Assembly: GCA_029856105.1 (NCBI GenBank)
Contig: JAHQWH010000195.1
Span: 1 to 19,120 of the forward strand
Reading direction: 5' to 3'
DNA from: Promethearchaeia archaeon
Lineage (GTDB): Archaea; Asgardarchaeota; Lokiarchaeia; Sigyniarchaeales; SOKP01
Length of the DNA: 19,120 nucleotides
Below the pieces are notes generated by a model. The model worked only from the letters and a program-made list of their open reading frames with translations, had not been told where the DNA came from and did not search any database. This document shows, one piece after another, positions 1 to 17,338 of this stretch (the stretch's first letter is position 1; every line of letters starts with the position of its first letter). A program made the translations under genes and the position numbers.

Positions 1-565
1 AGAAGGAATCGGCAAAATCGATTTGATCGCTTAAAAGTAGCTCCTTACGGAGTTTAGAAATAACTTGAAATACTTCAAATTCATCACTAATCCCACTTTT
101 ATAGCATTCAACCCTAACTGAGGGAATGTCCTCATCGTTATAAAAACTAGAGGTAGTGATATTATCGAATCCTGTATTATCCAATAGTTCGATTAAGAGG
201 AACGGGGGAAAACATAATTTATGCTGTAAACCTTTATGAGGAATTCCATACAACCAACCTAATATCTCTTTTTTCTGTTCTCCGTTTGCTTTTAAATAAT
301 GCTGACAAGCTTTCTCGAGATCAGGAGTTTCAAGGATTAATTTCCCATTAGGTTCTAATACTCTAAAAAATTCACTAAGAGCATAAATAGTTTCAAAAAA
401 ACTTAAGTGTTCAATTATATGAATCGCTTTAATTTCATCGCAAGTATTGTCATCAAATTCTAGGTTAAAAGCTGACATCAGTCTATCAGCCACTAAATCT
501 TCATACAAATCAATATTACAATAATCGGGATCGTATTTTTTTCCGCAACCAATATTAAGCTTCAT
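1..565 (-). CDS. Class I SAM-dependent methyltransferase (Methyltransf_11-like), partial, runs off the left edge; missing from the ORF track
   Basis: Manual translation from ATG at 565-563 is open to the window edge: MKLNIGCGKKYDPDYCNIDLYEDLVADRLMSAFNLEFDDNTCDEIKAIHIIEHLSFFETIYALSEFFRVLEPNGKLILETPD... It has motif I (LNIGCG), HIIEH and the RVLxPxG motif. The ATG overlaps the TGA stop of the upstream peptide gene (ATGA). Confidence 0.9.
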   Translation of the reverse strand, partial: MKLNIGCGKKYDPDYCNIDLYEDLVADRLMSAFNLEFDDNTCDEIKAIHIIEHLSFFETIYALSEFFRVLEPNGKLILETPDLEKACQHYLKANGEQKKEILGWLYGIPHKGLQHKLCFPPFLLIELLDNTGFDNITTSSFYNDEDIPSVRVECYKSGISDEFEVFQVISKLRKELLLSDQIDFADSF

Positions 566-810
566 TTTTTTTTATCAAAGTCTTTTATTTTTACAGTTGA
601 ATATTTTGTTCCGCTAGGATAAGTGTTGCTTATTGTCGATTCAATAAATAATCCAATAAAATAGCCCACAATTGAGAACATTATAATTAAAATAATCAGT
701 AATATGACGCTATTCTTAACATTATCATAGAATAAAACTTTGTTAACTTCTTTTTTAGATAATCCTAGTTCTTTCCCGATTTTATATAGTTGAATAAAAT
801 CTTTCGTCAT
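562..810 (-). CDS. Small single-pass membrane peptide, paralog 3 of 3 (candidate rSAM substrate/precursor)
   Basis: Shares LYKIGKELGLSKKE and YPSGTKYSTVKIKDF with the two neighbouring ORFs. The start is probably ATG at 810 (MTKDFIQ..., 82 aa, matching paralog length, with an SD-like GAGTGA upstream) rather than GTG at 825. Confidence 0.85.
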   Translation of the reverse strand: MTKDFIQLYKIGKELGLSKKEVNKVLFYDNVKNSVILLIILIIMFSIVGYFIGLFIESTISNTYPSGTKYSTVKIKDFDKKK

Positions 811-908
811 TTTCTCAATAATCACTCATAATTTGATGTTAATTTAAATTTTATATTTTTACCATCAGATTAAAATTACATGATTTCTTTAAGAAAAAAT
901 TGTTGAAT

Positions 909-1154
909 TTACTTTTTTTCATTGAAATCTTTTATTCTAATAGTAGAATAGTAAGTTCCTGCTGCATAAGTATTTCTAGAGGCTTCTATTCCTAATATTA
1001 TTATTATAATACCAAAAAAAACAAATGATATTATCAATAGGCTTTTGTATAACAAAATATGTTTACTATTCTCAAATATTAGTACCTTATTAATTTCTTT
1101 CTTATTTAATCCCAATTCTTTACCGATTTTAAAGAGCTTAATTATATCTTTCAT
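909..1154 (-). CDS. Small single-pass membrane peptide, paralog 2 of 3 (candidate rSAM substrate/precursor)
   Basis: 81 aa: LFKIGKELGLNKKEINKV, a hydrophobic segment, then EASRNTYAAGTYYSTIRIKDF. An AGGTGA SD-like motif lies upstream at about 1169-1174 on the minus strand. Confidence 0.85.
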   Translation of the reverse strand: MKDIIKLFKIGKELGLNKKEINKVLIFENSKHILLYKSLLIISFVFFGIIIIILGIEASRNTYAAGTYYSTIRIKDFNEKK

Positions 1155-1193
1155 TATTTTCTAAATATTCACCTATAATTTAAAATTTATCAC

Positions 1194-1442
1194 TTATTTT
1201 TTACCTTTAAAATCCTTTATTTTTACAGTAGAATATAATGTTCCAGCAGGATAAATATGTCTTGAGGCTTCAATTCCTAATATAATAATCATAATTCCAA
1301 AAAAAATAAAGACGATTATCATTAGGATTTTGAAAAATAATGGATATCTACTATCGTCAAATAAAAACACTCTATTAATTTCTTTCTTACTTAATCCTAA
1401 TTCTTTACCGATTTTATATAATTGAAAAAAGTTTTCTAACAT
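1194..1442 (-). CDS. Small single-pass membrane peptide, paralog 1 of 3 (candidate rSAM substrate/precursor)
   Basis: 82 aa: LYKIGKELGLSKKEINRV, a hydrophobic segment, then EASRHIYPAGTLYSTVKIKDF. GGAGG SD at 1453-1457 on the minus strand. Confidence 0.85.
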   Translation of the reverse strand: MLENFFQLYKIGKELGLSKKEINRVFLFDDSRYPLFFKILMIIVFIFFGIMIIILGIEASRHIYPAGTLYSTVKIKDFKGKK

Positions 1443-1476
1443 TTTTAAGATGCCTCCATTAAATTCTATTATTAGA

Positions 1477-2580
1477 TTATTTGAATATTAAGTTGTGATA
1501 CATATTTTTTAATATTGAAATTGTTGAATCCAATTTCCCTTTAATTGGTAATTGTTTCGATGAAAACATTTTATTTTCGATTGCTCTTAGGCAATATGGC
1601 TCATCAAATTCTTTTAAAGCATAAGATGATCCCAAACATCCTCCCCGACATATTTTTACCATATCACAATCTACGCAATAGCCTTTTAACTGTTTTTGCT
1701 TTAATCTTATCTTTTCTAAAATAGTTTTCAAACTCTGCGTTCTAATATTTCCTTCGATAAAACCATCTGGGAGCGTTAAACACCCTTTAATATTTCCATT
1801 GCTCTGAATACCTAAAACTGATAATCCCGCTTGGCATCCCACCCATGGATCCAACCCTAAATTTGGTAAGAACCTTGAAAAATGACCGAAACAATGAGCA
1901 CCAATAACGGGTAATCTTTTATAGGAATACTTTTTAACATTTATTGCAATGAATAATGCAACAGCGTAAAATTCCTCCCTTGAAATCGTTAATTCTCTTG
2001 GAAAGCGCCCAATAGGGATAGCTATCTGGATTTGCCAAGCAATATTTCGATCTAATAATATTTTTTTTATCTTATCTAATTCATTTAAATTAGTTTTACT
2101 TACTGCTGTAATAACACTGACTGGTAATTTTTCTTCTTTTAACCTGTTAATCGCATTTAGTGTTTTTTCAAATGCTCCTGGAATGCCTCTAAGATAATCG
2201 TGGACTTTGGCCGACCCTCCATCTAAACTTAGCGATACGCAGTCAACTTTTAGGCTTTTTAATTTTTGAATGTTATCAATCAAAGTTAATCCGTTAGTAA
2301 CAATTGATAATTCCATTTTATTTTTTTTAATTTCTCTCGCAATTTCATACCAATCGTCTCTAATTAATGGTTCTCCTCCCATTAAAGCAACTCCTTTGTA
2401 ACCACAATCACGGATTTCCCTAACTAATTTTAAAGATTCTTCGGTATTTAGTTCATCAAGACGAGCTTTTCCTGCAGATGATCCACAATGAATGCAATTG
2501 CTATTACACTTTAATGTAATTTCCCATACAGCGCAAGAGGGTTTAATTCTTTGGGATATTAGAGAAGTAATGCTTGGCAT
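1477..2580 (-). CDS. Radical SAM/SPASM-domain protein, resembling the PlpX/PcpX (splicease-type) peptide maturase clade
   Basis: CxxxCxxC (AVWEITLKCNSNCIHCGS), GGEP, SLDG and AWQIQ motifs. SPASM cysteines: GCQAGLSVLGIQSNGNIKGC...GNIR...CVDCDMVKICRGGC...PYC. Confidence 0.93.
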   Translation of the reverse strand: MPSITSLISQRIKPSCAVWEITLKCNSNCIHCGSSAGKARLDELNTEESLKLVREIRDCGYKGVALMGGEPLIRDDWYEIAREIKKNKMELSIVTNGLTLIDNIQKLKSLKVDCVSLSLDGGSAKVHDYLRGIPGAFEKTLNAINRLKEEKLPVSVITAVSKTNLNELDKIKKILLDRNIAWQIQIAIPIGRFPRELTISREEFYAVALFIAINVKKYSYKRLPVIGAHCFGHFSRFLPNLGLDPWVGCQAGLSVLGIQSNGNIKGCLTLPDGFIEGNIRTQSLKTILEKIRLKQKQLKGYCVDCDMVKICRGGCLGSSYALKEFDEPYCLRAIENKMFSSKQLPIKGKLDSTISILKNMYHNLIFK

Positions 2581-2664
2581 ATCTTTAATTTGGACTCAAT
2601 ATACTAAATTATATGTTATTAAGTAAATTATTAAATGTTTCCATCCAAAATACATAACTGTTGA

Positions 2665-2805
2665 AAAATTGCTATTTGCCAGAAGGATTCTGTCTTCATA
2701 CTTAGTATGGATTATACATAAACATATCGATTTTACAATGTGGTGGATGGTTTCCCCGATTGGACTGGAGAGAAATTAATCAATAATAAGGAATTCAATG
2801 GATAA
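2665..2805 (+). pseudogene. Possible degenerate fragment of a rhodanese-like domain
   Basis: Stitching frames gives roughly IAICQ-GF--SYLVWIIHKHIDF-NVVDGFPDW, reminiscent of rhodanese C-x-x-G-x-R-S...NVxGGxxxW. It needs several frameshifts and has no start codon. Confidence 0.2.
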
Positions 2806-3690
2806 TCAATAATCTATGGGCCATTCGAGCAAGGATACAATTAAATTTTTGTTAGATAATCCTCCTCGAGTAAGTGTACCTACAAAATTTTCTCGTTTAA
2901 ACATTTTTTTTAAAACATACTTTAAAAGTTGCTTATCCAGAAGTCCTTTTTGTTTAGCTTCATTTTGAAATCTATGAGCTTTCAGATGTAGTGAATTAAT
3001 CTCATCCATTTTATCTTTTAAAAACGATCTGCCTTTAAAAACGCCCTTCCCAGTAGTAAAGAGAAGCAAGTTGTCCATTCCCTTTGTGAAATCATACAAT
3101 TTTTTAATTGATTGAAATATAAGGGAGATATCTTCGGGAATGTCTGTGTCTTTACCAAATATCATTCGATATTTTGGCATTACTACATCGTTGATAAATG
3201 CCCACTGTTGTTTTCGTTCAACTAAACTAATTAGTTCAGGAGCATGTCCAGGCGTATCCATTATATCAAAAATATATTTACCTGACTTAGAATTAATTGA
3301 ATCTTTTAATAGTTCAGCCTGAAACGGTTGGTAGTCTACGCCCCAAGTCATTTGTCGATAATCGGGATATGCTTTTTCTTTCATTAATAGTGGAATAGCC
3401 AGCTCACTAGCGAAAACGGGAATGTTAAATTCTTCTTGGAGCATACGACCACCACCACAATGATCTTCGTGGTTATGTGTAATTACACACTTCTCAATCA
3501 TATTCTCGGAATCAAGAGTTTTTATAAATTTGCGTAAATCTTCTACTCCTCCTGGAGCACCTGCATCAATTAATAACCCGTCAACTAAAAATGCTGAAGT
3601 CCAAAAAGGTTGTGGCATTAATTCGCTGTCTGAAGACCATTTCCATTCTAATATCTCGTTATTACAGTGATAAATTATTTGAACAACCAT
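2806..3690 (-). CDS. MBL-fold metallo-hydrolase
   Basis: LIDAG, THNHEDH (HxHxDH) and TPGH motifs. Confidence 0.9.
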   Translation of the reverse strand: MVVQIIYHCNNEILEWKWSSDSELMPQPFWTSAFLVDGLLIDAGAPGGVEDLRKFIKTLDSENMIEKCVITHNHEDHCGGGRMLQEEFNIPVFASELAIPLLMKEKAYPDYRQMTWGVDYQPFQAELLKDSINSKSGKYIFDIMDTPGHAPELISLVERKQQWAFINDVVMPKYRMIFGKDTDIPEDISLIFQSIKKLYDFTKGMDNLLLFTTGKGVFKGRSFLKDKMDEINSLHLKAHRFQNEAKQKGLLDKQLLKYVLKKMFKRENFVGTLTRGGLSNKNLIVSLLEWPIDY

Positions 3691-3833
3691 AATTTTCTCA
3701 AAAGTGTAGTTCTGTTGAGTCTATTTAAAAAATTTTGATATTAAATAATAGTGATACCTATTTAATTGGTTATATTGTTCGTGTAAATATTCCTATATAA
3801 AACGTTTAAACAGTTTTAAAGTTCGATTAAATT

Positions 3834-3849
3834 AAAAAAAGAAAAAAAA
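3834..3849 (-). terminator. Putative archaeal oligo-T terminator downstream of mscL
   Basis: T8-C-T7 run on the minus strand about 25 nt after the mscL stop. Confidence 0.45.
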
Positions 3850-3874
3850 GTTATATTTGAAAATCAAATCTTTT

Positions 3875-4252
3875 TTATTCAATACCGAGTTTTGCTGTGT
3901 ATTTTATCAACAAAAAGATTACAAAAGCCACAATGATAAAAGTTATAAGGTCTCCTAAAAAAGCCCCTATTCGAAAAACCCAAAGCGTGAATTCCTCCCA
4001 TGGAATATTAGCCGGTAAGAAAAAAGTGACTAAAGGCATTACTAGATTATCTACAAGCGACTGAACAAGGTCCCCGATATATTGACCCATAATAAAAGCA
4101 ATAGCTAAACCTAAGACCTTATATTTCATTATAAAATCTTTAAATTCTTCTAAAAGACTTTTCTTTTTTCCAGGCTCCTTAGGAGGCGGAGTAGGTGCTA
4201 ACGCTTCTCTAATTTTCTTTAATTCTTCTAACATTTCTGAATCTGTCGTCAT
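3875..4252 (-). CDS. mscL: Large-conductance mechanosensitive channel MscL family protein
   Basis: S1/TM1 pattern EEFKDFIMKYKVLGLAIAFIMG...LVQSLVDNLVMP and TM2 pattern IGAFLGDLITFIIVAFVIFLLIK. Confidence 0.9.
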   Translation of the reverse strand: MTTDSEMLEELKKIREALAPTPPPKEPGKKKSLLEEFKDFIMKYKVLGLAIAFIMGQYIGDLVQSLVDNLVMPLVTFFLPANIPWEEFTLWVFRIGAFLGDLITFIIVAFVIFLLIKYTAKLGIE

Positions 4253-4465
4253 ATTATTTCACTTAACAATTTTTGATTTGGATTAATGTTTTTTTAAATT
4301 TAATTTGGTGTTAATTTTTATTTCGTTTAGTTTTAATTAAATATTTTTTTAATAATTTATTAGATGGGGTTGAAAATTAATTCGAAAGCTAACTTAAAAA
4401 AAAAAAACCCAATCTTTTTACAATTAGTCAAAAAATATTTAATTCTAAATTGATTTCATTTAATT

Positions 4466-5320
4466 ATGAGTAATACTGGATTTAATCAATTTCAAGGAGA
4501 TGTTAATACTGAAAGGATCAAATATATTGCTGATCCTCAACTAAAAAACATCGTTAATGTTTCAATTGCCTTAGCTCGACCTTTAATAGTAAAAGGAGAG
4601 CCCGGTACAGGGAAAACTTTGTTATCCCACGCTATTGCCGAATCTTTAGGAAAACGATTAATTGTATGGAATGTAAAAAGCACAACGGAAGCAATTGATG
4701 GTTGCTACATGTACGATACCGTCCAGAGATTAAACGATAGTCGATTTGGAAGCGATGATCGTAACGTAAATAATATTAAAGATTACATTACACTTGGACC
4801 GCTAGGGGAAGCCTTTGACTCTGAGGAGCAAGTCGTCCTTCTTATCGACGAGGTTGATAAGGCAGATATCGAGTTTCCAAACGATCTTTTACAGGAATTA
4901 GATGTAATGGAATTTTACGTTAAAGAAACCAAAGAATTTATTAAAGCTAAAACTCGACCTATAGTTATTATTACTTCAAATAACGAAAAGGAACTTCCTG
5001 ACGCGTTCTTACGCCGATGTGTGTTTCATTGGATAGAATTTCCTTCAAAAGAATTTATGGCAGACATCTGTAATCTTCACTATCCACATCTGAAACAAAA
5101 CCTCTTAGATCAATGCCTTAAAAATTTCTATGCGTTAAGAGCGATCACAAAATTAAGGAAAATGCCCTCTACATCTGAACTTCTGGATTGGATCGGTGTC
5201 TTATTGAAAAGTGGAATAAGCCTAGACGAACTGAAGCACGGAATTCCATTCCTTGGAGTGCTCCTTAAAAAGGAAAAAGATCTCGAAATAGCTTTAGATA
5301 AAATTAAGTTCCCTACATGA
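4466..5320 (+). CDS. MoxR-family AAA+ ATPase (CoxD-like)
   Basis: Walker A GEPGTGKT, YDTVQRLND, Walker B LLIDEVDKAD, and ITSNNEKELPDAFLRRC. Confidence 0.93.
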   Translation: MSNTGFNQFQGDVNTERIKYIADPQLKNIVNVSIALARPLIVKGEPGTGKTLLSHAIAESLGKRLIVWNVKSTTEAIDGCYMYDTVQRLNDSRFGSDDRNVNNIKDYITLGPLGEAFDSEEQVVLLIDEVDKADIEFPNDLLQELDVMEFYVKETKEFIKAKTRPIVIITSNNEKELPDAFLRRCVFHWIEFPSKEFMADICNLHYPHLKQNLLDQCLKNFYALRAITKLRKMPSTSELLDWIGVLLKSGISLDELKHGIPFLGVLLKKEKDLEIALDKIKFPT

Positions 5321-5355
5321 TCTATTTTAAAATATTTGGTTATAGGATTAAATAA

Positions 5356-6588
5356 ATGTTTGTTGAGTATTTTTATTACCTAAAAGAAAGGTTACCGGTA
5401 AGTATTACGGAGTATATGACCCTTATGGAAGCCCTTGAAAAAGGCCTTATTCATAACATGGTCGAGTTCTACTATATTTCGAGATCTATATTATGCAAGA
5501 ACGAACATCACTTTGATATTTACGATATTTCGTTTGCTAACTTTTTCAAAGACGCATCTTTAAAGTTTCCAGAAGAAATCAAACAAGAAATATGGGATTG
5601 GCTTCAAAAAGATATTAATCCACCAGAATTACCTGACGGATTTCAGGAATTTCTTAACCAACATTTTGATATCGAAGAATTACAAAAACACTTCGAAGAA
5701 TTACTTAAAAAGCAGGATGAGGAGCATAATTTTGGAGATCAATGGATTGGAACTCAAGGTTTTTCTCAATTTGGTCATTCGGGGCAAAACCCAATGGGCA
5801 TGAGGGTAGGTGGCTCGTCCGGTATGCGTATGGCAATACAAATCGCCCAAAAAAGAATTTTTGCCGATTACAGAAAAGATATCGTTTTAGACACACGCCA
5901 AATTAAAGTAGCATTGAAGCGTCTAAAAAAATTGGAAGAGATCGGGAAGCAAGACGAGTTAAACATGGATAAAACAATTGATGAAACTGCTAGAAATGGT
6001 GGAGACATTGAACTTATTTTCGAGAAAAAAAGGAAAAACAACGTTAAACTTATCCTTCTTATGGATGTTGGGGGTTCAATGACCCCCTACGCTCATCTTG
6101 TCAACCTACTTTTTTCTGCTGCCAACAACATGTCACATTGGAAAGACTTTAAGTTTTACTACTTCCACAATTGCGTATATGACCAACTATATTTCAATGC
6201 CCAAAGAAATTCTGACGAGGCTATAGATTTCGACGATCTTTTGAAAAAATACGATAATAAGTACAAAGTAGTTATCGTTGGCGACGCTGCTATGGCTTCT
6301 TGGGAGCTTACGGAAAGATATGGTTCGATTTATTATTACCATAGAAATGAGATGCCCGGAATTTATTACGTTAAAGAAATAGCCAATCACTTCAAGAACA
6401 ATGTTGTTTGGTTAAACCCTGAATTAATTCGTTTAGAGTGGGTACCATGGACGAGGAAGATTATTTCGAGCCTTATCCCTATGTTTAACTTGACGATTGA
6501 AGGAATCGAAGAAGCGATGAATTATCTAAGAAACAGCGGGAAAAACCAATTTACCACAGTTCATAGACTTAAGGGACTGAATTATTGA
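5356..6588 (+). CDS. VWA-domain CoxE-like protein, partner of the MoxR ATPase
   Basis: WIGTxGxSxFGHSG, LLMDVGGSM (MIDAS variant), YFHNCVY, VGDAxM and WLNP motifs; directly downstream of the MoxR gene. Confidence 0.88.
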   Translation: MFVEYFYYLKERLPVSITEYMTLMEALEKGLIHNMVEFYYISRSILCKNEHHFDIYDISFANFFKDASLKFPEEIKQEIWDWLQKDINPPELPDGFQEFLNQHFDIEELQKHFEELLKKQDEEHNFGDQWIGTQGFSQFGHSGQNPMGMRVGGSSGMRMAIQIAQKRIFADYRKDIVLDTRQIKVALKRLKKLEEIGKQDELNMDKTIDETARNGGDIELIFEKKRKNNVKLILLMDVGGSMTPYAHLVNLLFSAANNMSHWKDFKFYYFHNCVYDQLYFNAQRNSDEAIDFDDLLKKYDNKYKVVIVGDAAMASWELTERYGSIYYYHRNEMPGIYYVKEIANHFKNNVVWLNPELIRLEWVPWTRKIISSLIPMFNLTIEGIEEAMNYLRNSGKNQFTTVHRLKGLNY

Positions 6589-6597
6589 AAGATATCT

Positions 6598-8262
6598 CTA
6601 AGCTATCTTTCTCAATACTTCTTTCTCAATAGTTAAATCGTAAGAATCGTAAAAAATTGAATAGTATTTTTGGTAAAATTCTTTTTTCTTTGTTAAAACC
6701 AATTTTGAATCTTCCTTTTCTGCTTTTCCTGAAGCCCAAAATATTTTTCCTGAACCATTCATATTAAATTTCTCTTGGTTTTTGATAATTTCTCCTGACT
6801 TTATCACGAATTCTATGTTTTCAAGCGCTTTCTTTAAAGTTTCAACATCTTTCAAAACATCGACATCGTTTAAGTTCAAATTCAAAACATTCAGGTCACC
6901 ATCAGCACCTAAACCTAAATTACCTTTTATGCTTCCAATACCTAGCGATTTAGCTGGGCTCGAACGAGTTAAAATTACGAAATCGTTAAAAGTCAGTACT
7001 TTGTCATTACTGGATAGAGAATTATCTTTTAAAAAGTCGGCATCCATATCTTTCATATAACTTTCACGAGCTTTGTTGCTCAATAACCAAGTTGCGATTT
7101 CAGGAACTTTAGTTATATTTGCATAGTTCGGGTAGTTGACTGAGAATTGCATTTGCCACGGGTCAATATTTAACGCTAAATCAATAGCGTTTGCCCACAA
7201 AATACAATCGCTTCCCTTTTTTTTACTAAATTTTCTTAGAGTTACAAATGAATCTCCTTCTGATTCTACCGATGATCTAATTAGTTTATACGCGTTTTCC
7301 GAACTTATTAGATTATTTACCAAATGACGGTCAGATGTAATTAACGGATTCAACTTGTCAAATCCAATAAAACCTAAATCCATGTCAAAATCGTGGTTCT
7401 CGTTGAAAAATTTAATCAATTCTGAGTTATCTCCGTCAGAATTATAAGCTGAAACGTGTGCAAGGTGAAATATTTGAGACCTTTTAATTTCAAGGGAGTT
7501 GTTTGTGTTAGGTTTTAAGCCAAGCGATTTGATCTTGTTTAGAATTAACACTAAATTCTCTTTAGAAAGAGCAGATTCGTAACCTTCGATATGGGCGTGA
7601 ATAGAATGAGGTAGACCTAAAGACTCTACAAATTTAGTGAGATTTTCGTAAGCATCCATAGGAGTAAAGTTAAATAACCTTCCCTTTTCGGTTAGGCTTT
7701 TTCTAACCTTCTTCCAATTCCAATATTCCGCTTCGAAGGGATTATAGGCTTTGAAGCCAAATCCTTTAACTTTATCTAAGAGATCTGACAAAAAAACGGC
7801 ACCTTCTTCAACCTTTCCCCGCTGAAATTCGAGTTCTAAAGCCCATAAATTACTGGTGTTTAATAAAAATGCTTTATCTAGCACTGGCAATCGTTTAAAA
7901 TCAAATATCGTCTGTTTTGAGAGGGACGGGAAAACATTAGCTTCGAGAATAAATGTATATCCGTTCGAAATATAACTTTTAGCAATGTTTTCTAAAGTTA
8001 AACCTTTCCATATATCTTGGAACTCTTTATTTTCAGATCCCAACAATCGCGCCCAGTTAACTTGCTGGGAAGCTATGTGAGTGTGCGTATCCACTGCCGA
8101 CGGAACAACCGTTTTTCCTTTAGCGTCGATTTCTTTAAGATCGTTTTTGTTAGTAAACTTTTCCACTATTTTTCCGTTTTCAATTAAAATATCTTTTATT
8201 TCTCCTTCAATATTGTTTATCGGGTCAAAAACAAAACCATTTTTCACAAGGAGCTTAGCCAT
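6598..8262 (-). CDS. fwdA: Formylmethanofuran dehydrogenase subunit A-like amidohydrolase
   Basis: LLVKNGFVFDP N-terminus, DTHTH, GFKAYNP, LGLPHSIHAH, TRSSPAKSLG and KGNLGLGADGD. The start is probably ATG at 8262 (MAKLLVKNG), just after the fwdD stop, rather than 8301. Confidence 0.88.
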   Translation of the reverse strand: MAKLLVKNGFVFDPINNIEGEIKDILIENGKIVEKFTNKNDLKEIDAKGKTVVPSAVDTHTHIASQQVNWARLLGSENKEFQDIWKGLTLENIAKSYISNGYTFILEANVFPSLSKQTIFDFKRLPVLDKAFLLNTSNLWALELEFQRGKVEEGAVFLSDLLDKVKGFGFKAYNPFEAEYWNWKKVRKSLTEKGRLFNFTPMDAYENLTKFVESLGLPHSIHAHIEGYESALSKENLVLILNKIKSLGLKPNTNNSLEIKRSQIFHLAHVSAYNSDGDNSELIKFFNENHDFDMDLGFIGFDKLNPLITSDRHLVNNLISSENAYKLIRSSVESEGDSFVTLRKFSKKKGSDCILWANAIDLALNIDPWQMQFSVNYPNYANITKVPEIATWLLSNKARESYMKDMDADFLKDNSLSSNDKVLTFNDFVILTRSSPAKSLGIGSIKGNLGLGADGDLNVLNLNLNDVDVLKDVETLKKALENIEFVIKSGEIIKNQEKFNMNGSGKIFWASGKAEKEDSKLVLTKKKEFYQKYYSIFYDSYDLTIEKEVLRKIA

Positions 8263-8263
8263 C

Positions 8264-8641
8264 TTATTCGATACCTCTGATTTTTTGGATAATTTCTTCA
8301 AATTTCAGTATTGGCTCGCGCGTCGCTTCCACGCTTACTACTATGTTTTTATAAACGAGTTCATCATTTAATATTTCTGTTAATTGGTTTGACCATATTG
8401 ACACGGGCATCGTTATGGTTCCTTCAGGTACATTATCGTCTTTTTCAATTTTTACTATAATATTCCTTTGATTATTCGATATTTTTAAATGTAAGCTTGA
8501 AACTAAATTGAGTTTGTCAAAATCTTTTGGATTAATAAATGATATCGCTAAGTTTTCTTCTAAGGATTGTTTGTTTCCAAAACTATGTTCTTTTACTTGA
8601 TCGTTGTCAATTTTTCTCATAGTATTTAATAGGAAATCCAT
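8264..8641 (-). CDS. fwdD: Formylmethanofuran dehydrogenase subunit D-like (molybdopterin dinucleotide-binding domain)
   Basis: LLNTxR N-terminus, INPKD, VPEGTITMP..WSNQL and V-x-V-E C-terminal strand; lies between fwdB and fwdA. The start is probably ATG at 8641 (MDFLLNT), 1 nt after the fwdB stop, with GGAGG upstream. Confidence 0.82.
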   Translation of the reverse strand: MDFLLNTMRKIDNDQVKEHSFGNKQSLEENLAISFINPKDFDKLNLVSSLHLKISNNQRNIIVKIEKDDNVPEGTITMPVSIWSNQLTEILNDELVYKNIVVSVEATREPILKFEEIIQKIRGIE

Positions 8642-8642
8642 A

Positions 8643-9947
8643 TTATTTCGCGCCTCCATTTAATTTTTCAATCAATTGGTTCAGTAGTTCTTCGTCCGAA
8701 GGAATGTTATTAGGTGGATTTAAAATTTTTTTTAATTCAACGGGTACTTGATCTATACGATAAGCGAGTCCACTACTTTCAATTCCCGTTATTGCTGTTG
8801 GTAATACTATATCTGCTATGCGTGAAGTTGCTGAATTATGGTTATCTATGAGTATAAGTGGTTTTTTTGCTAATTTGGAGCTTAAAGAATGTGGTAAATG
8901 TGAGATAGGATCGGTTCCGACGATAATAGAACAATCGAAGTTTTCTTTATTAATTTTTGAAATGATTGTGTCTTCTGACTTAACTAATTTTTTACTTTCA
9001 AATTGTAATTTACCGCTTACTCCGTATGAGGAAAGCGCTACATGATCGAACCCTGCCATGTTAAAGTGCCCTCCCAATAAAAGCAGCGATATTCGACCTT
9101 TTACCTGCCTTGTATTTATCAATTGTAACAAGTCTAGTAATTCCTCCATAAGATCGTAATCAGCGTGAGGTTGTATTACGCCCTGTCCAAGAATAATTAC
9201 GCCGTTTTCTGCACCAGTTAGGTGGAGCAGCAAACGCTTAAGATCGTTTTTATCTACTCCGGCAACACCTCCAGATGGGATGCTATCGGCACTACAACAT
9301 TCTTCTTTTAACATCTGAATTAATTCAATATCTTTATCTGGTTCAATAATTAATGCTAGATCTCGCACGCCCATTACATTGAAAGAAGCGGTTTTTACAG
9401 GATCTATAATTACTAGCGTCTTTATTTCTCTGCCAGTCATGCGAAATTTACCTCTGGAAAAAAGAACTTTATTTAGAAGGCGAGGAATCGTTTCAGCTGG
9501 ATTTGCCCCCCATAAAATAATCAAGTCTACTTTGTTAATAATTTCTGTAATCGTTGTCAAATTTATTCCTTGCGCTTTTGCTTTATTTAAAATCTTTCCT
9601 TGACAAATTGAAGCGTTTGAATCGATAAATCCGTTTATTTCTCTTGCTAAATCCATTCCAGCTCTTTGAGCCTCACAGGTTACGTTTGAAAACCCATAAA
9701 GCAATGGAGCGGAAGAATTTTTGATGATTTCGACAGTTTTTGCTAACGCTTCTTCCCATGATGTATTAATCAATTCGTCGTTTTTTCGAATCATCGGACT
9801 TGTAATTCTATTCTGAGCGCTAACTTGATCAAATCTTTCCTTTCCTTTTAAACAGGCTCCAATAACCTCATCAATAAATAGACCATCGCTCTTAACTATT
9901 ATGTCATCACACAATAATGAGCAACCAGAACAAGGGTATCTTTTCAT
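8643..9947 (-). CDS. fwdB: Formylmethanofuran dehydrogenase subunit B-like molybdo/tungstopterin protein
   Basis: CSGCSLLCDD...ACLKG [4Fe-4S] motif, PLLYG, DSNASIC, WGANP, GHFN, GTDPISHLP and PTAITGIESSGLAYRIDQVP. Confidence 0.9.
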   Translation of the reverse strand: MKRYPCSGCSLLCDDIIVKSDGLFIDEVIGACLKGKERFDQVSAQNRITSPMIRKNDELINTSWEEALAKTVEIIKNSSAPLLYGFSNVTCEAQRAGMDLAREINGFIDSNASICQGKILNKAKAQGINLTTITEIINKVDLIILWGANPAETIPRLLNKVLFSRGKFRMTGREIKTLVIIDPVKTASFNVMGVRDLALIIEPDKDIELIQMLKEECCSADSIPSGGVAGVDKNDLKRLLLHLTGAENGVIILGQGVIQPHADYDLMEELLDLLQLINTRQVKGRISLLLLGGHFNMAGFDHVALSSYGVSGKLQFESKKLVKSEDTIISKINKENFDCSIIVGTDPISHLPHSLSSKLAKKPLILIDNHNSATSRIADIVLPTAITGIESSGLAYRIDQVPVELKKILNPPNNIPSDEELLNQLIEKLNGGAK

Positions 9948-9984
9948 AATTAAATCCTTAATAATTTTTTATAAATATAAATCG

Positions 9985-10452
9985 TTATACATATTCAATT
10001 TTAATTGCTTCGCGAGGACAGTAAGTTTCACATACGCGACATTCTCTTTCTCGGCCCTCCGAGTCCAACCTTCGACAATGTTCAAGGTTTAATAATTCAC
10101 ACTTTCCTCCTATCACTTGAAAGAGTTGGTGTTTCTCAGGGGGATATTCTGGAGCTTTACCGCTTAAACTAGGGGGACAATATCTTGCGTTTACAGGACA
10201 TATGGTCACACAAATTCCACACCCATCGCAAAGGTCTTCGTCTACATTTATTCTCAGTTCTTTTTGTTGCCCTTCTTCGGAACCAAGCATTTCCTTTAAT
10301 TTATCGTATTGCTTTTTATATTTTGGTTTTAAAAGGGGAGGACAATCGTCTATTTTAGCTTTACCCTGCAATAAATCTAAACTGAAAGCCATGCAAGTGG
10401 GCTTCCCGCACTCTTTACAATTAGTTTTAGGCAAAAACTTGTACAATTCCAT
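9985..10452 (-). CDS. FwdG-like ferredoxin: N-terminal FeS (PF04060-type) domain plus 2x[4Fe-4S] domain
   Basis: LPKTNCKECGKPTCMAF...CPPL, CDGCGICVTICP and C...CRVCETYCP; first gene of the fwd operon. Confidence 0.82.
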   Translation of the reverse strand: MELYKFLPKTNCKECGKPTCMAFSLDLLQGKAKIDDCPPLLKPKYKKQYDKLKEMLGSEEGQQKELRINVDEDLCDGCGICVTICPVNARYCPPSLSGKAPEYPPEKHQLFQVIGGKCELLNLEHCRRLDSEGRERECRVCETYCPREAIKIEYV

Positions 10453-10632
10453 GAAATTTTGAACTGGTATGTTAATTCACCTTAGAATTATTAATAATAT
10501 CGAGTCCTACGATTAATTAATATTTAAACTTATTAATTTCTTTAGATTATTGAATATAAAATAGTGCACTCTCGTACATAATTAATCATATATAATGTAA
10601 AGTATAAAAAATCAACAAGAGATAATTGCATA

Positions 10633-12060
10633 ATGTTTGTTAAAATTCTTGATGATGAACAGATTGATAAAATTCACCAAAAATCGCTACATATTCTTGA
10701 AAATATTGGTGTGATCGTACCTCACGAAGAAGCGTTGGTGCGTTTTGCTACTTTTGGAGCAAATGTGGATAGCAAAAGAAGTTTGGTAAAAATACCTTCA
10801 GATTTAGTTATGGAGTTCATTTCAAAAGCGGGAAAGAAGTTCGCTATTTACGGGCGCGATCTTTCTAAAAAGGCAGAATTTGGCGTTGGAAAGCGCAATT
10901 ACAATACTTCTGCTGGTCAAACCTTTTGGGTTGATAATATCGGCGATCAAAGAAGACACTCGACTCTCAACGATGTTAAAGAAGCTGTAAGATTTGCTGA
11001 TGCCTTAGACCAAATAACGATTCCAGGTGCTATGTCAGATCCTCTTGAAATCCCCATAGAATGGAGGTGCTTGCAAGTTGCTTTTGAGATGGTATCTCAT
11101 ACAGATAAACCGATTTATTTTTGGTTTAATGATAGAAACTCAGCAAAACAACTTATCGATTTTCTTGTAACTCTTAGGGGAGATGAGAAAAACGCTCAAA
11201 AATACCCTTTATTTTATCCTTTATTTGAGCCTGTTAGTCCTTTAAGCTTTCCTTTTAACGGGATTGACCTACTTTTTGAAACCGCTCGACTTAACTTACC
11301 GGTACATATTGGACCGATGGCCCAGATGGGAGTTTCCGCACCCGCTACTATTGCAGGAACTTTAGCTCAGGAAAACGCGGAGATTTTAGCAGCTATTTGC
11401 ATTACTCAGATTATCCGTGAAGGGATGCCTATTTGTTACGGTGGTATTTGTCACGCATTTGATATGAGAACAGCACAAATAATATTTGGCGGTCCAGAAC
11501 AAGCCATTTTTAGCATAGCAACGAGCCAGATGGGGAAACACTACGGATTTCCAGTTTATATCAACGCCGGATTAACCGATTCTAAGAGACCAGATGCTCA
11601 AGCTGGTCTTGAATGTGGAATTACACTCTCGTTGGGAATAGCTTCTGGAGCGGATATTTTTGGCCATATGGGGATTTGTGGTATGGACCAAGGTGCTTCT
11701 CTGGATATTCTTGTTATGCAATCAGAAATCATCTCTTATGTAGAAAGCGCAAATAGAGTATTAAATTTCGACGAAGATGATTTTGCCATGGACATTATTG
11801 ACGATGTTGGACCCAAGGGAACCTTTCTTAACAAACGCCACACGGTTAAAAATTTTAAGAAAGAATTATGGTTCCCAACGCTCTTAGATAGGAAAAATTA
11901 CGGTAATTGGCTAAAGACTGGAGCTAATGGGATGGAAAAACGATGCCGAATACGTAAAGAAGAGATTCTTTCAAAGCATAAAACAGAACCTTTAGCTGAT
12001 GATATTAAAACTGATCTTGAAAAAGTTATAGAAAATGTAAAAAAAAATCTTACAACTTAA
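10633..12060 (+). CDS. Trimethylamine methyltransferase (MttB/MtgB) superfamily protein, non-pyrrolysine
   Basis: IHQKSLHILENIGV, PVSPL, APATIAGTLAQENAEILA, FDMRT, GGPE, GLTDSKRPDAQAGLE and VGPKGTFL motifs; no in-frame amber codon. Confidence 0.93.
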   Translation: MFVKILDDEQIDKIHQKSLHILENIGVIVPHEEALVRFATFGANVDSKRSLVKIPSDLVMEFISKAGKKFAIYGRDLSKKAEFGVGKRNYNTSAGQTFWVDNIGDQRRHSTLNDVKEAVRFADALDQITIPGAMSDPLEIPIEWRCLQVAFEMVSHTDKPIYFWFNDRNSAKQLIDFLVTLRGDEKNAQKYPLFYPLFEPVSPLSFPFNGIDLLFETARLNLPVHIGPMAQMGVSAPATIAGTLAQENAEILAAICITQIIREGMPICYGGICHAFDMRTAQIIFGGPEQAIFSIATSQMGKHYGFPVYINAGLTDSKRPDAQAGLECGITLSLGIASGADIFGHMGICGMDQGASLDILVMQSEIISYVESANRVLNFDEDDFAMDIIDDVGPKGTFLNKRHTVKNFKKELWFPTLLDRKNYGNWLKTGANGMEKRCRIRKEEILSKHKTEPLADDIKTDLEKVIENVKKNLTT

Positions 12061-12109
12061 TCTTAAAAGATGATTTTTCATTATATAAATAAAAGAAAGG
12101 TGAATTATT

Positions 12110-12943
12110 TTGGATTCTAAAATTTTAAATGTCGTAGCAATATTCGCCCATCCAGACGATCTTTCTATTTTTTGCGCTGGTACTTTAGCGAGATGGGCAG
12201 AAGAAGGTCACAACGTGTACGCGTTATGTTGCACGAGCGGTGAAGTGGGAACGTTAAGACTCGATTTGACTAAAGAACAAGTTGCCGACACTCGCGAAAA
12301 GGAATTACGAGCAGCTAACGAAATAATTGGAGTAAAAGAAACGATTATCCTTGATTATCCTGATGCTGGATTTATAAACGGTCCAGAACTACGCGAAAAA
12401 CTCGTTTTTTTCGTGAGGAAATTAAAGGCAGATCGCGTAGTAACCTTCGATCCTTGGGTATCTTACGAAGTTCACCCCGATCACGTAATTGTCGGAAGAA
12501 TGGCGGCAGAGGCAGCGGCGTTTGCTGCTTTTCCTTTGCTTTATCCCGAACAAAGAAAAAAAGGCGTAGAACCTTACGCGTGTTCCGAAGTTTGGTTTAT
12601 GGGGCTCCTAGGTCACAAACCTAACTATTTTGTTGATATAACATCGACATTAGAAAAAAAAATAGAAGCCGCTTTAAAGTTTGAAGCGACGCTCGAACTT
12701 TTAGCTCAGTTATTTGCCCCAAAAATCGACCCGGCGAATGTATCTACAGATGAACTGAGGAAACTCACTAAATACGCAAATAGACTTTATCGTTCGTTAG
12801 CAACCGCAATTGGGAGTAAAGTGGACTTGAAAGCAGCTGAAGCTTTCTTTGTTCAAAAGACCTTGCCCGGACATTTTGATAACTTCCAACAATTAACATC
12901 AGAAATGTTAGGAAATCCACCCGAAAAGCCTAAAATTTATTAA
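12110..12943 (+). CDS. PIG-L/LmbE family deacetylase
   Basis: AHPDD, TSGE, R-x-x-E, HPDH and VDITSTLEKKIEA motifs; TTG start preceded by an AGGTGA SD. Confidence 0.92.
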   Translation: MDSKILNVVAIFAHPDDLSIFCAGTLARWAEEGHNVYALCCTSGEVGTLRLDLTKEQVADTREKELRAANEIIGVKETIILDYPDAGFINGPELREKLVFFVRKLKADRVVTFDPWVSYEVHPDHVIVGRMAAEAAAFAAFPLLYPEQRKKGVEPYACSEVWFMGLLGHKPNYFVDITSTLEKKIEAALKFEATLELLAQLFAPKIDPANVSTDELRKLTKYANRLYRSLATAIGSKVDLKAAEAFFVQKTLPGHFDNFQQLTSEMLGNPPEKPKIY

Positions 12944-12954
12944 AATCGAAATTA

Positions 12955-12966
12955 TTCTTTTTTCTT
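12955..12966 (+). terminator. Putative oligo-T terminator after the deacetylase
   Basis: TTCTTTTTTCTT shortly after the stop codon. Confidence 0.35.
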
Positions 12967-12983
12967 AAAATTTAGATTTTTAT

Positions 12984-13024
12984 TCATCAAATTTTCTTAG
13001 TGAATAATCTTTATAAAAAAGCTT
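12984..13024 (+). repeat. Imperfect direct repeat, copy 1 (contains TATA-like TTTATA)
   Basis: TCATCAAATTTTCTTAGTGAATAATCTTTATAAAAAAGCTT; 35/41 identical, ungapped, to 13888-13928 (counted by hand). Confidence 0.8.
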
Positions 13025-13117
13025 ATAAATAGATTTTATTTAAAAAATTCTCTATTATTCGGAATTTTATTCTTATTCTCATTTCATTTATTAGTATAAT
13101 TAAATATTAATAATATA

Positions 13118-13465
13118 ATGATCCATAGATTAAAGGAAGCTAAAGAAGAACATTTATATAATTTGCAAGTAGAATTAAATCGAATCAAATCAAAATTAAT
13201 TGAAATGGGTGCTCATAAGATAATTTTATTTGGCTCAGCCGCTCGGGAAGAATTAGGACTTATGAGTGATATTGATTTAATAGTGGTTATAGATTCAAAT
13301 AAAGACTTTATTGAAAGATTATCTTTTTTTTATCAAAAAATCCAGCCCATAGATGCTGATCTTTTGATTTACACTCCACATGAGTTTATTCGAATGATGG
13401 AAAATAATTTATTCATACAACACATATTAAAACAAGGTAAAATAATTTTTGAGCGAACCAAATAA
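13118..13465 (+). CDS. Minimal nucleotidyltransferase (MNT), putative antitoxin
   Basis: ILFGSAAREELGLMSDIDLIVV, an exact GSx10DxD motif, plus a third acidic residue in DLLIYTP. Confidence 0.92.
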   Translation: MIHRLKEAKEEHLYNLQVELNRIKSKLIEMGAHKIILFGSAAREELGLMSDIDLIVVIDSNKDFIERLSFFYQKIQPIDADLLIYTPHEFIRMMENNLFIQHILKQGKIIFERTK

Positions 13466-13862
13466 ATATTATAAAGAAGCAAAAAGATGGATTGAACAAG
13501 CTAAAGAAGATTTAAGTAGTGCTAAAATCCTTTTTGATGCTAAACGGTATTATTTAGTATGTTTTCTCGCTCAACAAATTGCAGAAAAAGCTTTAAAATC
13601 TGTGATTTATTTTAATAAAGAAGATTTAGTATTAGGTCATTCTGTTAGAAAATTAGTAGAATGGGCAAGTAAGTTTGATAAGAGATTTAAAGATCTTATT
13701 AATGAAATCTCTATTTTAGATAGTTATTACATTCCTACGAGATATCCTAATGGATTACCTGATGGGATTCCAGCAGAGATTTTCAATCGAGAGGCTGCAG
13801 AAAGTGCTTTTAAATTAGCAGAATCCACCATTAAAATTGTTACCGATTATCTTGATTTCTAA
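13449..13862 (+). CDS. HEPN domain protein (PF05168/COG2250 type), MNT partner
   Basis: W..QAKEDL..A, CFLAQQIAEKALK, GHS and YIPTRYP motifs; TTG start overlaps the MNT gene by 17 bp. Confidence 0.92.
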   Translation: MSEPNKYYKEAKRWIEQAKEDLSSAKILFDAKRYYLVCFLAQQIAEKALKSVIYFNKEDLVLGHSVRKLVEWASKFDKRFKDLINEISILDSYYIPTRYPNGLPDGIPAEIFNREAAESAFKLAESTIKIVTDYLDF

Positions 13863-13887
13863 AATTTATTATTAGCACTATTTTATC

Positions 13888-13928
13888 TCATTAAATTTAC
13901 TTAGTGAGGAATCTTTATATAAAAGTTT
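13888..13928 (+). repeat. Imperfect direct repeat, copy 2 (contains TATA-like TTTATA; probable MFS promoter region)
   Basis: TCATTAAATTTACTTAGTGAGGAATCTTTATATAAAAGTTT; matches 12984-13024. Confidence 0.8.
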
Positions 13929-13995
13929 GGTAGAGAATAATTTAATTTGAAATTTAATAAAAAAAAAATAAAAAATTAAAAAAAGTGATACATGA

Positions 13996-15408
13996 ATGAA
14001 TGAAACAACCGAACAATTGTCTTATAAAGAACCCTCAATACTCAATACACTTTCTTACGGAGCAGGTGGTTTTTGGTATACATTAGCATTTGGAGTATTT
14101 GATGTATTTCTACTGTACTTTTACGAGACTGTCGTTGGATTAGATATAGTTTATATATTTTCGGCGATGGTTATCTTCACATTATGGGATGCAATAAATG
14201 ATCCTTTAATTGGCTTTCTTACTGATCGAATAACGAAATATACAAGAAAGGTGGGAAAGCGATTCATTTGGATTGTAATTGGCATAATTCCCGCAAACTT
14301 TGTCCTTGCTCTCGTATATATGCCCCCCGCAGGAAGTGCTGCAACAGATCCTCTACCATTTTTTTTCTGGATAATATTTACAACTTGTTTATTCGATAGT
14401 CTTACAACGCTCTGTTTTGTTAATGTAGACGCACTTTTTCCTGACAAATTTCTGACTGAAAAATCTCGTAGAAAGGCTAGAGGTTGGGGAACCCCTCTTT
14501 CTATACTAGCTCTACCCGTTGCTAATATTGTACCTCCAATAATCCTTAATCTTTATGGGGGATTAGACGTTCAAGCAGCTTACATACCGATGGTATGGCT
14601 TATGGTTGCCACAATAGCACCGATCTCTTTACTATTCCTCCCAGGTATGCGCGAGAATAAAGAAATGATTGAGAGATACTACATAAGTAAAGAGAAACCT
14701 CAAAGTTTCATAAACGCATTAAAATCGAGCTTAAAACAGAAAAGCTTTATTTACTATATTATTTTGGCTTTCGGATTTCAAGTGGTAATCGGGTGTTTAA
14801 CAGCTTCAATACCTTATGCTGTCGATTTTGTATTACCAGAATTACCATTTGGCGATTATGTTAACATGATAATATTGTTCGCGACATTTTTAAACGCTGC
14901 TGTTATTTCGGTTCCCATTTGGATATGGCTCGCGAAAAAAATCAAAAATAACAAGAAAATGGCGTTAATAGGGGGTTGTTGTTTGACTGTAGGAACGCTT
15001 TTAACAGCTTTTTATGTAAATATCTTTGATTCCATGATATATCAATCTATTTTAGGATTTACTATGGGCAACTTTTGGGCTTTAATGACAATTTATTTCT
15101 CAGATGTTATGGATGAGAGAATAATATTAACAAAAACTCCGAATAGGGGTGCAACAGTAGGCATTTCAAAGTTCTTTTCTCGATTATCTCGAGCTGCAAT
15201 TTATGCTATATTTACACTTGTGCATATCCTCACTGGCTTCGACGAGAATAATATTATTCCTTCTGCGCAAATAGGCATTCGTTTACATATGAGCGTTATC
15301 CCTGCAATAATATTACTCATCTGTACTATAATATATTGGAAATATTATCCCATTACACCGGAAATATGGATGCAAAATAAGCAAAAGCTCAAAGAACTTG
15401 GATTCTAA
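13996..15408 (+). CDS. MFS transporter, glycoside-pentoside-hexuronide (MelB/GPH) family
   Basis: WDAINDPLIGFLTDR...GKR motif, about 12 hydrophobic segments, SDVMDE and C-terminal YPIT. Confidence 0.9.
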   Translation: MNETTEQLSYKEPSILNTLSYGAGGFWYTLAFGVFDVFLLYFYETVVGLDIVYIFSAMVIFTLWDAINDPLIGFLTDRITKYTRKVGKRFIWIVIGIIPANFVLALVYMPPAGSAATDPLPFFFWIIFTTCLFDSLTTLCFVNVDALFPDKFLTEKSRRKARGWGTPLSILALPVANIVPPIILNLYGGLDVQAAYIPMVWLMVATIAPISLLFLPGMRENKEMIERYYISKEKPQSFINALKSSLKQKSFIYYIILAFGFQVVIGCLTASIPYAVDFVLPELPFGDYVNMIILFATFLNAAVISVPIWIWLAKKIKNNKKMALIGGCCLTVGTLLTAFYVNIFDSMIYQSILGFTMGNFWALMTIYFSDVMDERIILTKTPNRGATVGISKFFSRLSRAAIYAIFTLVHILTGFDENNIIPSAQIGIRLHMSVIPAIILLICTIIYWKYYPITPEIWMQNKQKLKELGF

Positions 15409-15424
15409 TAAAAAATAGTTTTAA

Positions 15425-15440
15425 TTCTTCCTTTTTTTTT
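15425..15440 (+). terminator. Putative oligo-T terminator between the convergent MFS and ATPase genes
   Basis: T-rich tract ending in T9 (15432-15440) after the MFS stop. Confidence 0.45.
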
Positions 15441-15448
15441 AAATTTTG

Positions 15449-17286: not shown

Positions 17287-17338
17287 TTTTAGCCTTGCTT
17301 TTTATAAATAAGTTATTTAAATTAATATTATTAGTTAG

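Follow-up and report, generated by a model that had tools for sequence, protein, structure and literature searches.

The question raised by this locus is what a radical S-adenosylmethionine (SAM)/SPASM enzyme does when it resembles the spliceases, which excise tyramine at X-Tyr-Gly (XYG) sites, and YG is absent from all three small proteins encoded directly beside it. The locus comes from a Promethearchaeia archaeon (assembly GCA_029856105.1, contig JAHQWH010000195.1), and the window analysed here is the whole stretch of 19,120 nucleotides from positions 1 to 19,120 of the forward strand. In minus-strand order, the gene of the splicease-like enzyme, or X protein (1477..2580, 367 amino acids), is followed by three paralogous small genes, which encode protein A (1194..1442, 82 amino acids), protein B (909..1154, 81 amino acids) and protein C (562..810, 82 amino acids), and then by the start of a methyltransferase gene. 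We suggest that this cassette most likely specifies a splicease variant that is free of a Y protein and would act on X-Tyr-Ser (X-Y-S) sites in membrane-anchored substrates, with a methyltransferase-tetratricopeptide repeat (TPR)-like protein as partner. For the central step, splicing at X-Y70-S71 of the small proteins by this enzyme, our confidence is slightly better than even.

The enzyme itself can be placed with some precision. Pfam recognizes its Radical_SAM and SPASM domains, and the open reading frame (ORF; 2580..1477, minus strand) contains all of the motifs quoted by an earlier note on this DNA, namely CAVWEITLKCNSNCIHCGSSAG, NIAWQIQ, GCQAGLSVLGIQSNGNIKGCLTLP, EGNIRTQSL, CVDCDMVKICRGGC and EPYC. 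The CX3CX2C cysteines C25, C29 and C32 and the seven SPASM cysteines C249, C267, C302, C305, C311, C315 and C330 are invariant among 48 homologues. The earlier note had likened the enzyme to the PlpX/PcpX and GDL-associated families, and the two best NCBIfam models are indeed TIGR04103 (nif11-class maturase 3, the PlpX/PcpX family), at 203 bits against a cut-off of 725, and TIGR03913, at 176 bits against 591.75, so that neither cut-off is passed. The AhbD model ranks third at 162 bits, and NirJ2 and NirJ score 130 and 115 bits (cut-offs in the AhbD/NirJ families are 500-650), MftC 123 bits (cut-off 265) and PqqE 70 bits (cut-off 381); no curated NCBIfam family cut-off is passed by the window enzyme. 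It therefore falls short of a curated splicease in score and in the XYG motif, while it has the lineage and the cofactor motifs of one. Related archaeal and tier-3 enzymes score in the same low range with TIGR04103 (209-235 bits). Cyanobacterial relatives score 714-814 bits, and two of them, at loci L069 and L078, exceed the cut-off (814 and 797 bits) and adjoin Nif11-type precursors with PLYGV sites, and these relatives are therefore ordinary type I spliceases.

The lineage was examined in a maximum-likelihood tree of 72 rows, which included AhbD-like proteins from Thermoplasmatota, scoring 320-341 bits on TIGR04545 and thus below that family's cut-off of 500, and the other radical SAM/SPASM paralogues of the window genome. 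The TIGR04103 spliceases and all of the archaeal and other bacterial relatives form one clade, with a Shimodaira-Hasegawa-like approximate likelihood ratio (SH-aLRT) support of 97, and both the AhbD-like proteins and the window genome's other paralogues fall outside it. A topology constrained to join the AhbD-like proteins to the archaeal and related clades is rejected by the approximately unbiased (AU) test (delta log-likelihood 81.7, p-AU 0.0007). The window clade is monophyletic, with an SH-aLRT of 100, and is nested among clades whose peptides carry Y-G. Membership among the AhbD/NirJ heme enzymes is thus ruled out by scores, tree and AU test, and no heme-pathway genes neighbour the enzyme. 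The earlier note had proposed a splicease relative and had named a grouping with AhbC/D or NirJ as the result that would overturn it; in a tree that holds no verified NirJ rows, the enzyme groups with the spliceases. Membership in TIGR03913 ('rad_SAM_trio') was rejected on the score of 176 bits versus 591.75 and on the lack of a GDL motif in the three neighbouring peptides, and membership in PqqE/MftC on both scores being under cut-off and on the lack of a neighbouring RiPP (ribosomally made peptide with post-translational modification) recognition element (RRE).

The argument for splicing turns on the tails of the small proteins. As the earlier note had observed, and as alignment bears out, all three lack YG and share two invariant tyrosines, 64 and 70, in the segment Y-x-x-G-T-x-Y-S-T; the whole shared tail reads Y-x-x-G-T-x-Y-S-T-[VI]-[KR]-I-K-D-F-x-x-K-K. 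In protein A the tail is YPAGTLYSTVKIKDFKGKK, in which X is Leu; its motif, Y64 to F78, is encoded at 1209..1253 on the minus strand, and the proposed site is L69-Y70-S71, with the Y70 codon at 1235..1233. In protein B (YAAGTYYSTIRIKDFNEKK, X is Tyr) the motif runs from Y63 to F77 (924..968, minus strand) with the proposed site Y68-Y69-S70, and in protein C (YPSGTKYSTVKIKDFDKKK, X is Lys) from Y64 to F78 (577..621, minus strand) with the proposed site K69-Y70-S71, so that the three sites are L-Y-S, Y-Y-S and K-Y-S. Across 44 sequences Y64, G67 and Y70 are invariant and S71 occurs in at least 90%, and no other part of the small proteins is as well conserved as this motif. Tails of the window clade have the form Y-P-x-G-[TAS]-x-Y-S-[ST]-[VI]-x-x-[KN]-D-F, with both tyrosines invariant; of 74 copies, 73 have Ser as the residue after the second tyrosine (the +1 residue) and one has Gly.

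Sister clades in Thermoplasmatota and Thorarchaeota carry the same aligned tail with Gly (8) or Ala (3) at +1, as in YVPGTRYGSISPKDF and YKAGTYYGTISIRDF, and their precursors, together with those of bacterial relatives, read Y-x-P/A-G-T-x-Y-G-[ST]-I...DF. The leader block (L/I)Y.IG..LGL.K.(D/E)I also heads soluble YG peptides of Thermoplasmatota, some of which have one leader followed by 3-6 tandem cores YKAGTxYGT[IV]SPxD[LV]; such precursors are located at L041:5612-5869 and L006:4506-4889. Tandem repeated cores are typical of multi-core RiPP precursors. Among bacteria, a Pseudomonadota relative encodes a segment reading YAPGTYYGLAKR, and Melainabacteria have signal-peptide proteins with the C-terminal end TTLYGVQDIKDF. 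When 1.84 billion representative proteins were searched independently with a profile, only 73 clusters emerged, all of 53-174 amino acids; in the 63 with an aligned site tyrosine the +1 residue is Ser in 41, Gly in 17, Ala in three and Asn in two, and leader-transmembrane-tail proteins with Y-G are also present among them. By these alignments the second invariant tyrosine occupies the position of the canonical X-Y-G splice-site tyrosine, and since the window sequences form a monophyletic group that lies within the Y-G clades, Ser is the derived state of the splice-site Gly. The residue X before the tyrosine is variable, as it is at known XYG sites, and multi-copy loci typically pair Leu with Tyr/Phe and Lys/Arg, the window having Leu, Tyr and Lys. 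The Y-G clades conserve Y64 and G67 to the same degree, and these residues therefore belong to a common recognition motif. The earlier note had offered non-YG splicing, a tyrosine cyclophane or crosslink, or a different substrate as the options for this enzyme; the equivalence with X-Y-G favours the first over the second and speaks against the third.

The small proteins, which are 50-62% identical to protein A, have a common design consisting of an N-terminal block LYKIGKELGLSKKEINKVL, one hydrophobic helix of about 20 residues and the C-terminal tail. The mean Kyte-Doolittle value of the helix over 19 residues is 2.9-3.4, the strongest 19-mer of protein A being residues 39-57, and charge counts leave the topology of this transmembrane helix undecided. 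In protein A the conserved N-terminal helix is LYKIGKELGLSKKEINRVF (1365..1421, minus strand), a candidate for docking on and activating the enzyme, and G12, L15, G16 and L17 of this block are invariant in the small-protein alignment. Counts of synonymous versus nonsynonymous changes between orthologous peptide genes were too few to inform. Type I spliceases need a small Y protein, unlike the binary (type II and later) spliceases, in which there is no Y protein and a precursor leader alpha-helix is predicted at the same enzyme site (PMC11414181). The invariant G12/L15/G16/L17 helix is, by analogy, the obvious candidate for a leader helix that replaces PlpY. The window enzyme has no N-terminal RRE, its radical SAM core beginning at about residue 15, and no RRE or PqqD-type domain was found among the 16 neighbouring ORFs scanned. 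The earlier note's remark that no PlpY-like or RRE partner is visible therefore stands, but the absence is no anomaly, being normal for binary spliceases (PMC11414181).

The enzyme and protein A were also co-folded in three runs with SAM and three 4Fe-4S clusters, complex modelling having been suggested by the earlier note. The ipSAE interface scores were 0.49, 0.39 and 0.05 (median 0.39), the best control scored 0.00, the partner had a predicted local distance difference test (pLDDT) value of 58 or more, and the runs agreed in at least 71% of contacts. In the calibration, at scores up to 0.60, 7 of 80 solved complexes pass, and both of the mismatched pairs that pass (2 of 110) lie in the same range, so that the support for this pairing is weak.

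The recurrence of the whole cassette ties the small proteins to the enzyme. The closest enzyme homologues (58-96% identity) are all from metagenome-assembled genomes (MAGs) of Asgard archaea. A hidden Markov model (HMM) of the small proteins detects 1-4 copies beside the enzyme wherever a related Asgard locus has enough DNA; it also picks up weaker homologues at Thorarchaeota and Thermoplasmatota loci. Because of this recurrence at every such Asgard locus, the pattern is not due to chance. At all of these Asgard loci the enzyme and its 1-4 small proteins are accompanied by a methyltransferase of about 440 amino acids, and the combination is also present at Thorarchaeota and Thermoplasmatota loci. 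Enzymes of 44-50% identity are found in Thorarchaeota, Thermoplasmatota and one contig labelled Patescibacteria, enzymes of mostly 37-44% in Melainabacteria/Gastranaerophilales, Elusimicrobiota and Pseudomonadota, and enzymes of 33-38% in cyanobacteria and myxobacteria. The contig with the Patescibacteria label (L047, JASEJS010000080.1, 2.7 kb) carries an archaeal-type enzyme, the methyltransferase and a small protein whose sequence is broken by a stretch of N, and its label could reflect misbinning or transfer. Many Y-G-type loci (L006, L041-L045, L048 and L057-L062) have two closely spaced radical SAM/SPASM genes. In Thermoplasmatota the splicease-like clade takes in both of them, and in Melainabacteria the second copy is very divergent and long-branched.

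Within the Asgard archaea an enzyme match at E <= 1e-80 occurs in 33 of 201 sampled genomes, and the window-type form (E < 1e-150) is confined to the GTDB family of the window itself, where 14 of 40 other genomes have it; in the window's genus it is present in 9 of 16. These tallies rule out a housekeeping gene common to all Asgard archaea, and the cassette is accessory and patchy rather than a core function. The restriction to one GTDB family is subject to the NCBI labels of some window-type MAGs, such as Hod-, Thor-, Odin- or Hermod-.

The methyltransferase-TPR-like gene occupies 2..565 on the minus strand, where the contig end leaves the first 188 of about 447 amino acids (Pfam Methyltransf_11/23). 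The window starts at contig position 1, and the rest of the gene was not found elsewhere in the assembly. The fragment is 60% identical to the N-terminus of the 447-residue L001 protein, and homologues of about 440 amino acids are 46-62% identical in Asgard loci and 30-39% in other loci. A full-length orthologue from the closest relative (L007:8017-9360) has an AlphaFold2 (AF2) pLDDT of 91; its N-terminal half has a class I methyltransferase fold (Foldseek E about 1e-5), and its C-terminal half is all-helical with a weak sequence match to Sgt2-TPR (E about 1e-3). The fold search returned only generic class I methyltransferases, with no clue to the substrate. Protein C has a mechanical ORF from a GTG at 825, and the ATG at 810 is likely its true start, as it gives 82 amino acids, like the paralogues and orthologues. 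Shine-Dalgarno-like sequences precede protein A (GGAGG, about 10 nucleotides upstream of the ATG) and protein B (GGTGA), and the stop of protein C overlaps the methyltransferase ATG as ATGA at 562-565, so that at least these two genes are translationally coupled.

Functionally the cassette looks like a binary spliceotide system. The binary pairs RhaX/RhaA, RcsX/RcsA and RasX/RasA of Rheinheimera (PMC11414181, PMC11626197) likewise have a radical SAM/SPASM enzyme without a separate PlpY or RRE, a precursor N-terminal helix that is proposed there to dock on and activate the enzyme, a variable X followed by an invariant Tyr near the C-terminus, and an enzyme gene directly beside the precursor genes. 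Those systems are bacterial, soluble and X-Y-G, whereas the present one is archaeal and X-Y-S, has a transmembrane helix between leader and core, and adds three paralogous putative substrates and a conserved methyltransferase-TPR partner; the likeness is drawn from the described features of the Rheinheimera systems. With the type I enzymes PlpX/PcpX (TIGR04103, IPR026482; PMC9811515, PMC11002830) the window enzyme shares the lineage by HMM ranking and tree and the full set of SPASM cysteines. The type I enzymes use PlpY and Nif11/NHLP precursors, whereas here there is no Y protein, Nif11/NHLP leader or GG cleavage motif; the Tyr is followed by Ser and not Gly, and the score is 203 bits versus 725. 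The archaeal Y-G cassettes of Thermoplasmatota and Thorarchaeota (L006, L038-L050) share an enzyme of 44-50% identity, the methyltransferase-TPR partner (30-39%), the leader block and the tail motif, and some of them the leader-transmembrane-tail design. They differ in having Gly (or Ala) at +1, in many peptides that are soluble and multi-core, in often having two tandem radical SAM paralogues, and in enzymes without the C-terminal extension of about 30 residues found in the window clade. To AhbD/NirJ (TIGR04545, TIGR04051/54/55) the likeness is confined to the general SPASM fold and moderate HMM scores (AhbD 162 bits).

From these comparisons we place the cassette in an archaeal branch of the splicease lineage and propose that the radical SAM/SPASM enzyme would bind each protein of about 82 amino acids through its conserved N-terminal helix, which may replace the missing PlpY or RRE in the manner of the binary spliceases, and would act on the second invariant tail tyrosine at X-Y70-S71. 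By homology with X-Y-G sites, the reaction would be the excision of a tyramine equivalent, with a mass change of about -135.07 Da (C8H9NO). The Gly lies outside the net bond rearrangement, and therefore a co-evolved enzyme could plausibly accept Ser. The methyltransferase-TPR protein may then add a further methylation or hold the substrate, and the products would remain membrane-anchored through the central helix.

Several observations weigh against this proposal. All splice sites in the literature examined are X-Y-G (PMC9811515, PMC11002830, PMC11626197), and YG alone is insufficient, since the DYG site of RcsA is unmodified (PMC11626197). The window enzyme scores 203 bits against the cut-off of 725 and is only 33-38% identical to TIGR04103 members. 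At this level of identity the chemistry of radical SAM enzymes can change. The tails have two invariant tyrosines and Gly67, and splicing explains one tyrosine only. With a single transmembrane helix between them, leader and tail should face opposite sides of the membrane, and modification would therefore have to precede insertion. Outgroup sampling in the tree was thin, with no verified NirJ, PqqE, MftC or TIGR03913 members; the PqqE row is absent because a TIGR02109 search of 61 genomes of one phylum returned no match, the control genomes being equally silent. The complex prediction is weak and reported no interface contacts by which to place Y70 relative to the active site.

The clade-specific residues of the enzyme bear on the same issue. 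The window-clade enzymes have Ser27 inside the C25-N-S-N-C29 loop where the Y-G enzymes have Leu, Leu98 after the TNG motif where those have Phe or Tyr, and Arg332 where those have His or Tyr. They also have a conserved C-terminal extension of about 30 residues (~340-367, or ~335-367; P.RGK.DS..SK.KNLY), an alignment gap in most Y-G-clade enzymes; a helix is predicted there at low confidence, the AF2 model of the window enzyme (pLDDT 84, residues 1-13 disordered) placing it at 352-366, and it may contact the membrane or a partner. These three residues and the helix may either make room for Ser or reflect a different reaction, and the substitutions, Ser27 and Leu98 among them, could mean altered chemistry rather than a mere fit to Ser.

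The alternative that survives best takes up this last point and keeps the same enzyme and substrates, with the change of Gly to Ser and the enzyme substitutions marking a switch to another tyrosine chemistry without tyramine excision. Possibilities include a C-C or C-O crosslink or cyclophane at Y64, Y70 or their neighbours, a Tyr-Ser link, or an MftC-like oxidation. We regard such a switch as less likely than splicing, but as the most probable of the alternatives. It would make sense of two invariant tyrosines with an invariant Gly between them, of which splicing accounts for one, as well as of Ser27 in the cluster-binding loop and Leu98 in the Y-S clade and of an enzyme far under the splicease family cut-offs, and the nearest SPASM folds include the crosslinkers SuiB, SkfB, PqqE and CteB. 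However, Y64 and G67 are kept equally in the Y-G sister clades and in the bacterial Y-G relative (YAPGTYYG), so they are no novelty of the Y-S proteins; a variable X beside an invariant Tyr is the signature of a splice site; and the fold matches are generic to SPASM enzymes. No splicease is among the solved structures in the PDB for comparison, and sequence and fold searches there yield only generic SPASM enzymes.

An improbable reading is that the small proteins give rise to a cofactor-like or diffusible product by the logic of pyrroloquinoline quinone (PQQ) and mycofactocin, the tail being modified, cleaved away and put to use as a redox cofactor or signal, maybe tied to Fwd-like molybdopterin enzymes. 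SPASM enzymes do make peptide-derived cofactors, the MftC and PqqE models score 123 and 70 bits here, and Fwd-like/molybdopterin genes are found close to the cassette in the window (6598-10452) and adjoin it in L001, L002 and L035. But the cassette has no conserved protease, PqqD/MftB-type RRE or transporter, and the GIEASR junction is not conserved across the family, for which reason signal-peptidase release at GIEA-SR was also discarded. The Fwd-like genes near L001 and L002 are 32-33% identical to those of the window, so their proximity is not conserved orthology. The presence in 9 of 16 genomes of one genus is unlike that of a core cofactor, and the differing X residues of the three paralogues speak for a product specific to the side chain and not a single cofactor. 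Weakest, by a little, is the idea that the small proteins are membrane anchors or regulators of a radical SAM enzyme and methyltransferase acting on a lipid, a cofactor or another protein. In its favour, linkage alone is no proof of a substrate role, the complex prediction is weakly supported, and a central transmembrane helix is unusual in a radical SAM substrate. Against it, the homologous soluble Thermoplasmatota peptides, with no such helix and with tandem YG cores, make sense only as substrates, the bacterial enzyme relatives adjoin classical YG precursors, and conservation in the small proteins is highest in the tail motif.

Other genes around the cassette were considered as well. A metallo-beta-lactamase (MBL)-fold hydrolase (2806-3690) and MscL and AAA/VWA genes were rejected as parts of the system, since they show local synteny in close relatives only and are absent from other cassettes. 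The closest relative, whose enzyme is 96% identical, has an IS605 OrfB/TnpB-type gene (L007:3492-4679) between the AAA and MBL genes, where the window has MscL. On the minus strand at 6598-10452 the window encodes an FwdA-like amidohydrolase, an FwdD-like Molydop_binding protein, an FwdB-like molybdopterin protein and an Fe-S protein, and in L001, L002 and L035 the cassette has molybdopterin/Fer4 clusters directly upstream of it; a functional link is doubtful and was set aside, the molybdopterin genes near L001 and L002 being only 32-33% identical to the window's. The genes at 10633-13862, an MttB-superfamily methyltransferase (475 amino acids, PF06253, E 6e-95), a PIG-L deacetylase, a nucleotidyltransferase and a 137-residue ORF, are unrelated to the cassette. 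In a subclade of 58-62% identity (L001:7767-8765, L002, L035 and L036) the methyltransferase-TPR gene is followed by one for a DNRLRE/CBM96-domain protein with a zinc ribbon. Nearer relatives of the window showed no such protein, and the window itself stops short of the corresponding position.

In known systems the residue X before the tyrosine becomes a beta-amino acid (PMC9811515). Other routes to beta-residues exist, such as methylation-driven isoaspartate formation (PMC9811515), and in the literature examined the spliceases are the only reported radical SAM route to backbone beta-amino acids and electrophilic ketoamides, by way of tyramine excision. We tentatively raise the possibility, on sequence grounds, that X-Tyr-Ser splicing would give membrane-anchored Asgard proteins with a ketoamide (alpha-keto-beta-amino acid) warhead, whose paralogues (beta-Leu, beta-Tyr and beta-Lys) might serve as cell-bound covalent protease inhibitors or reactive handles tuned by the methyltransferase-TPR protein. 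It is a speculation that ketoamide protease inhibitors displayed on the membrane, with three P1-like specificities, are the products.

Our literature search found no paper on archaeal or Asgard spliceases, though archaeal homologues may have been mentioned earlier. The spliceases in the literature examined are bacterial only, none of that literature treats Y-S sites, membrane-anchored precursors or a methyltransferase-TPR partner, and it says nothing on tyramine excision by the TIGR03913 (GDL-trio) family. If our proposal is correct, it would bring a first archaeal splicease and a first natural splice site without Gly, and X-Tyr-Ser would widen the sequence rule behind splice-tag engineering. 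The Y-G and Y-S sister clades, with few differing residues (Ser27, Leu98, Arg332 and the C-terminal helix), provide a natural experiment on +1 specificity. The modification would then be a feature of cell-bound proteins and not of a natural product that is secreted, and the Asgard archaea would gain a defined post-translational modification, a group whose cell-surface biology is relevant to eukaryogenesis.

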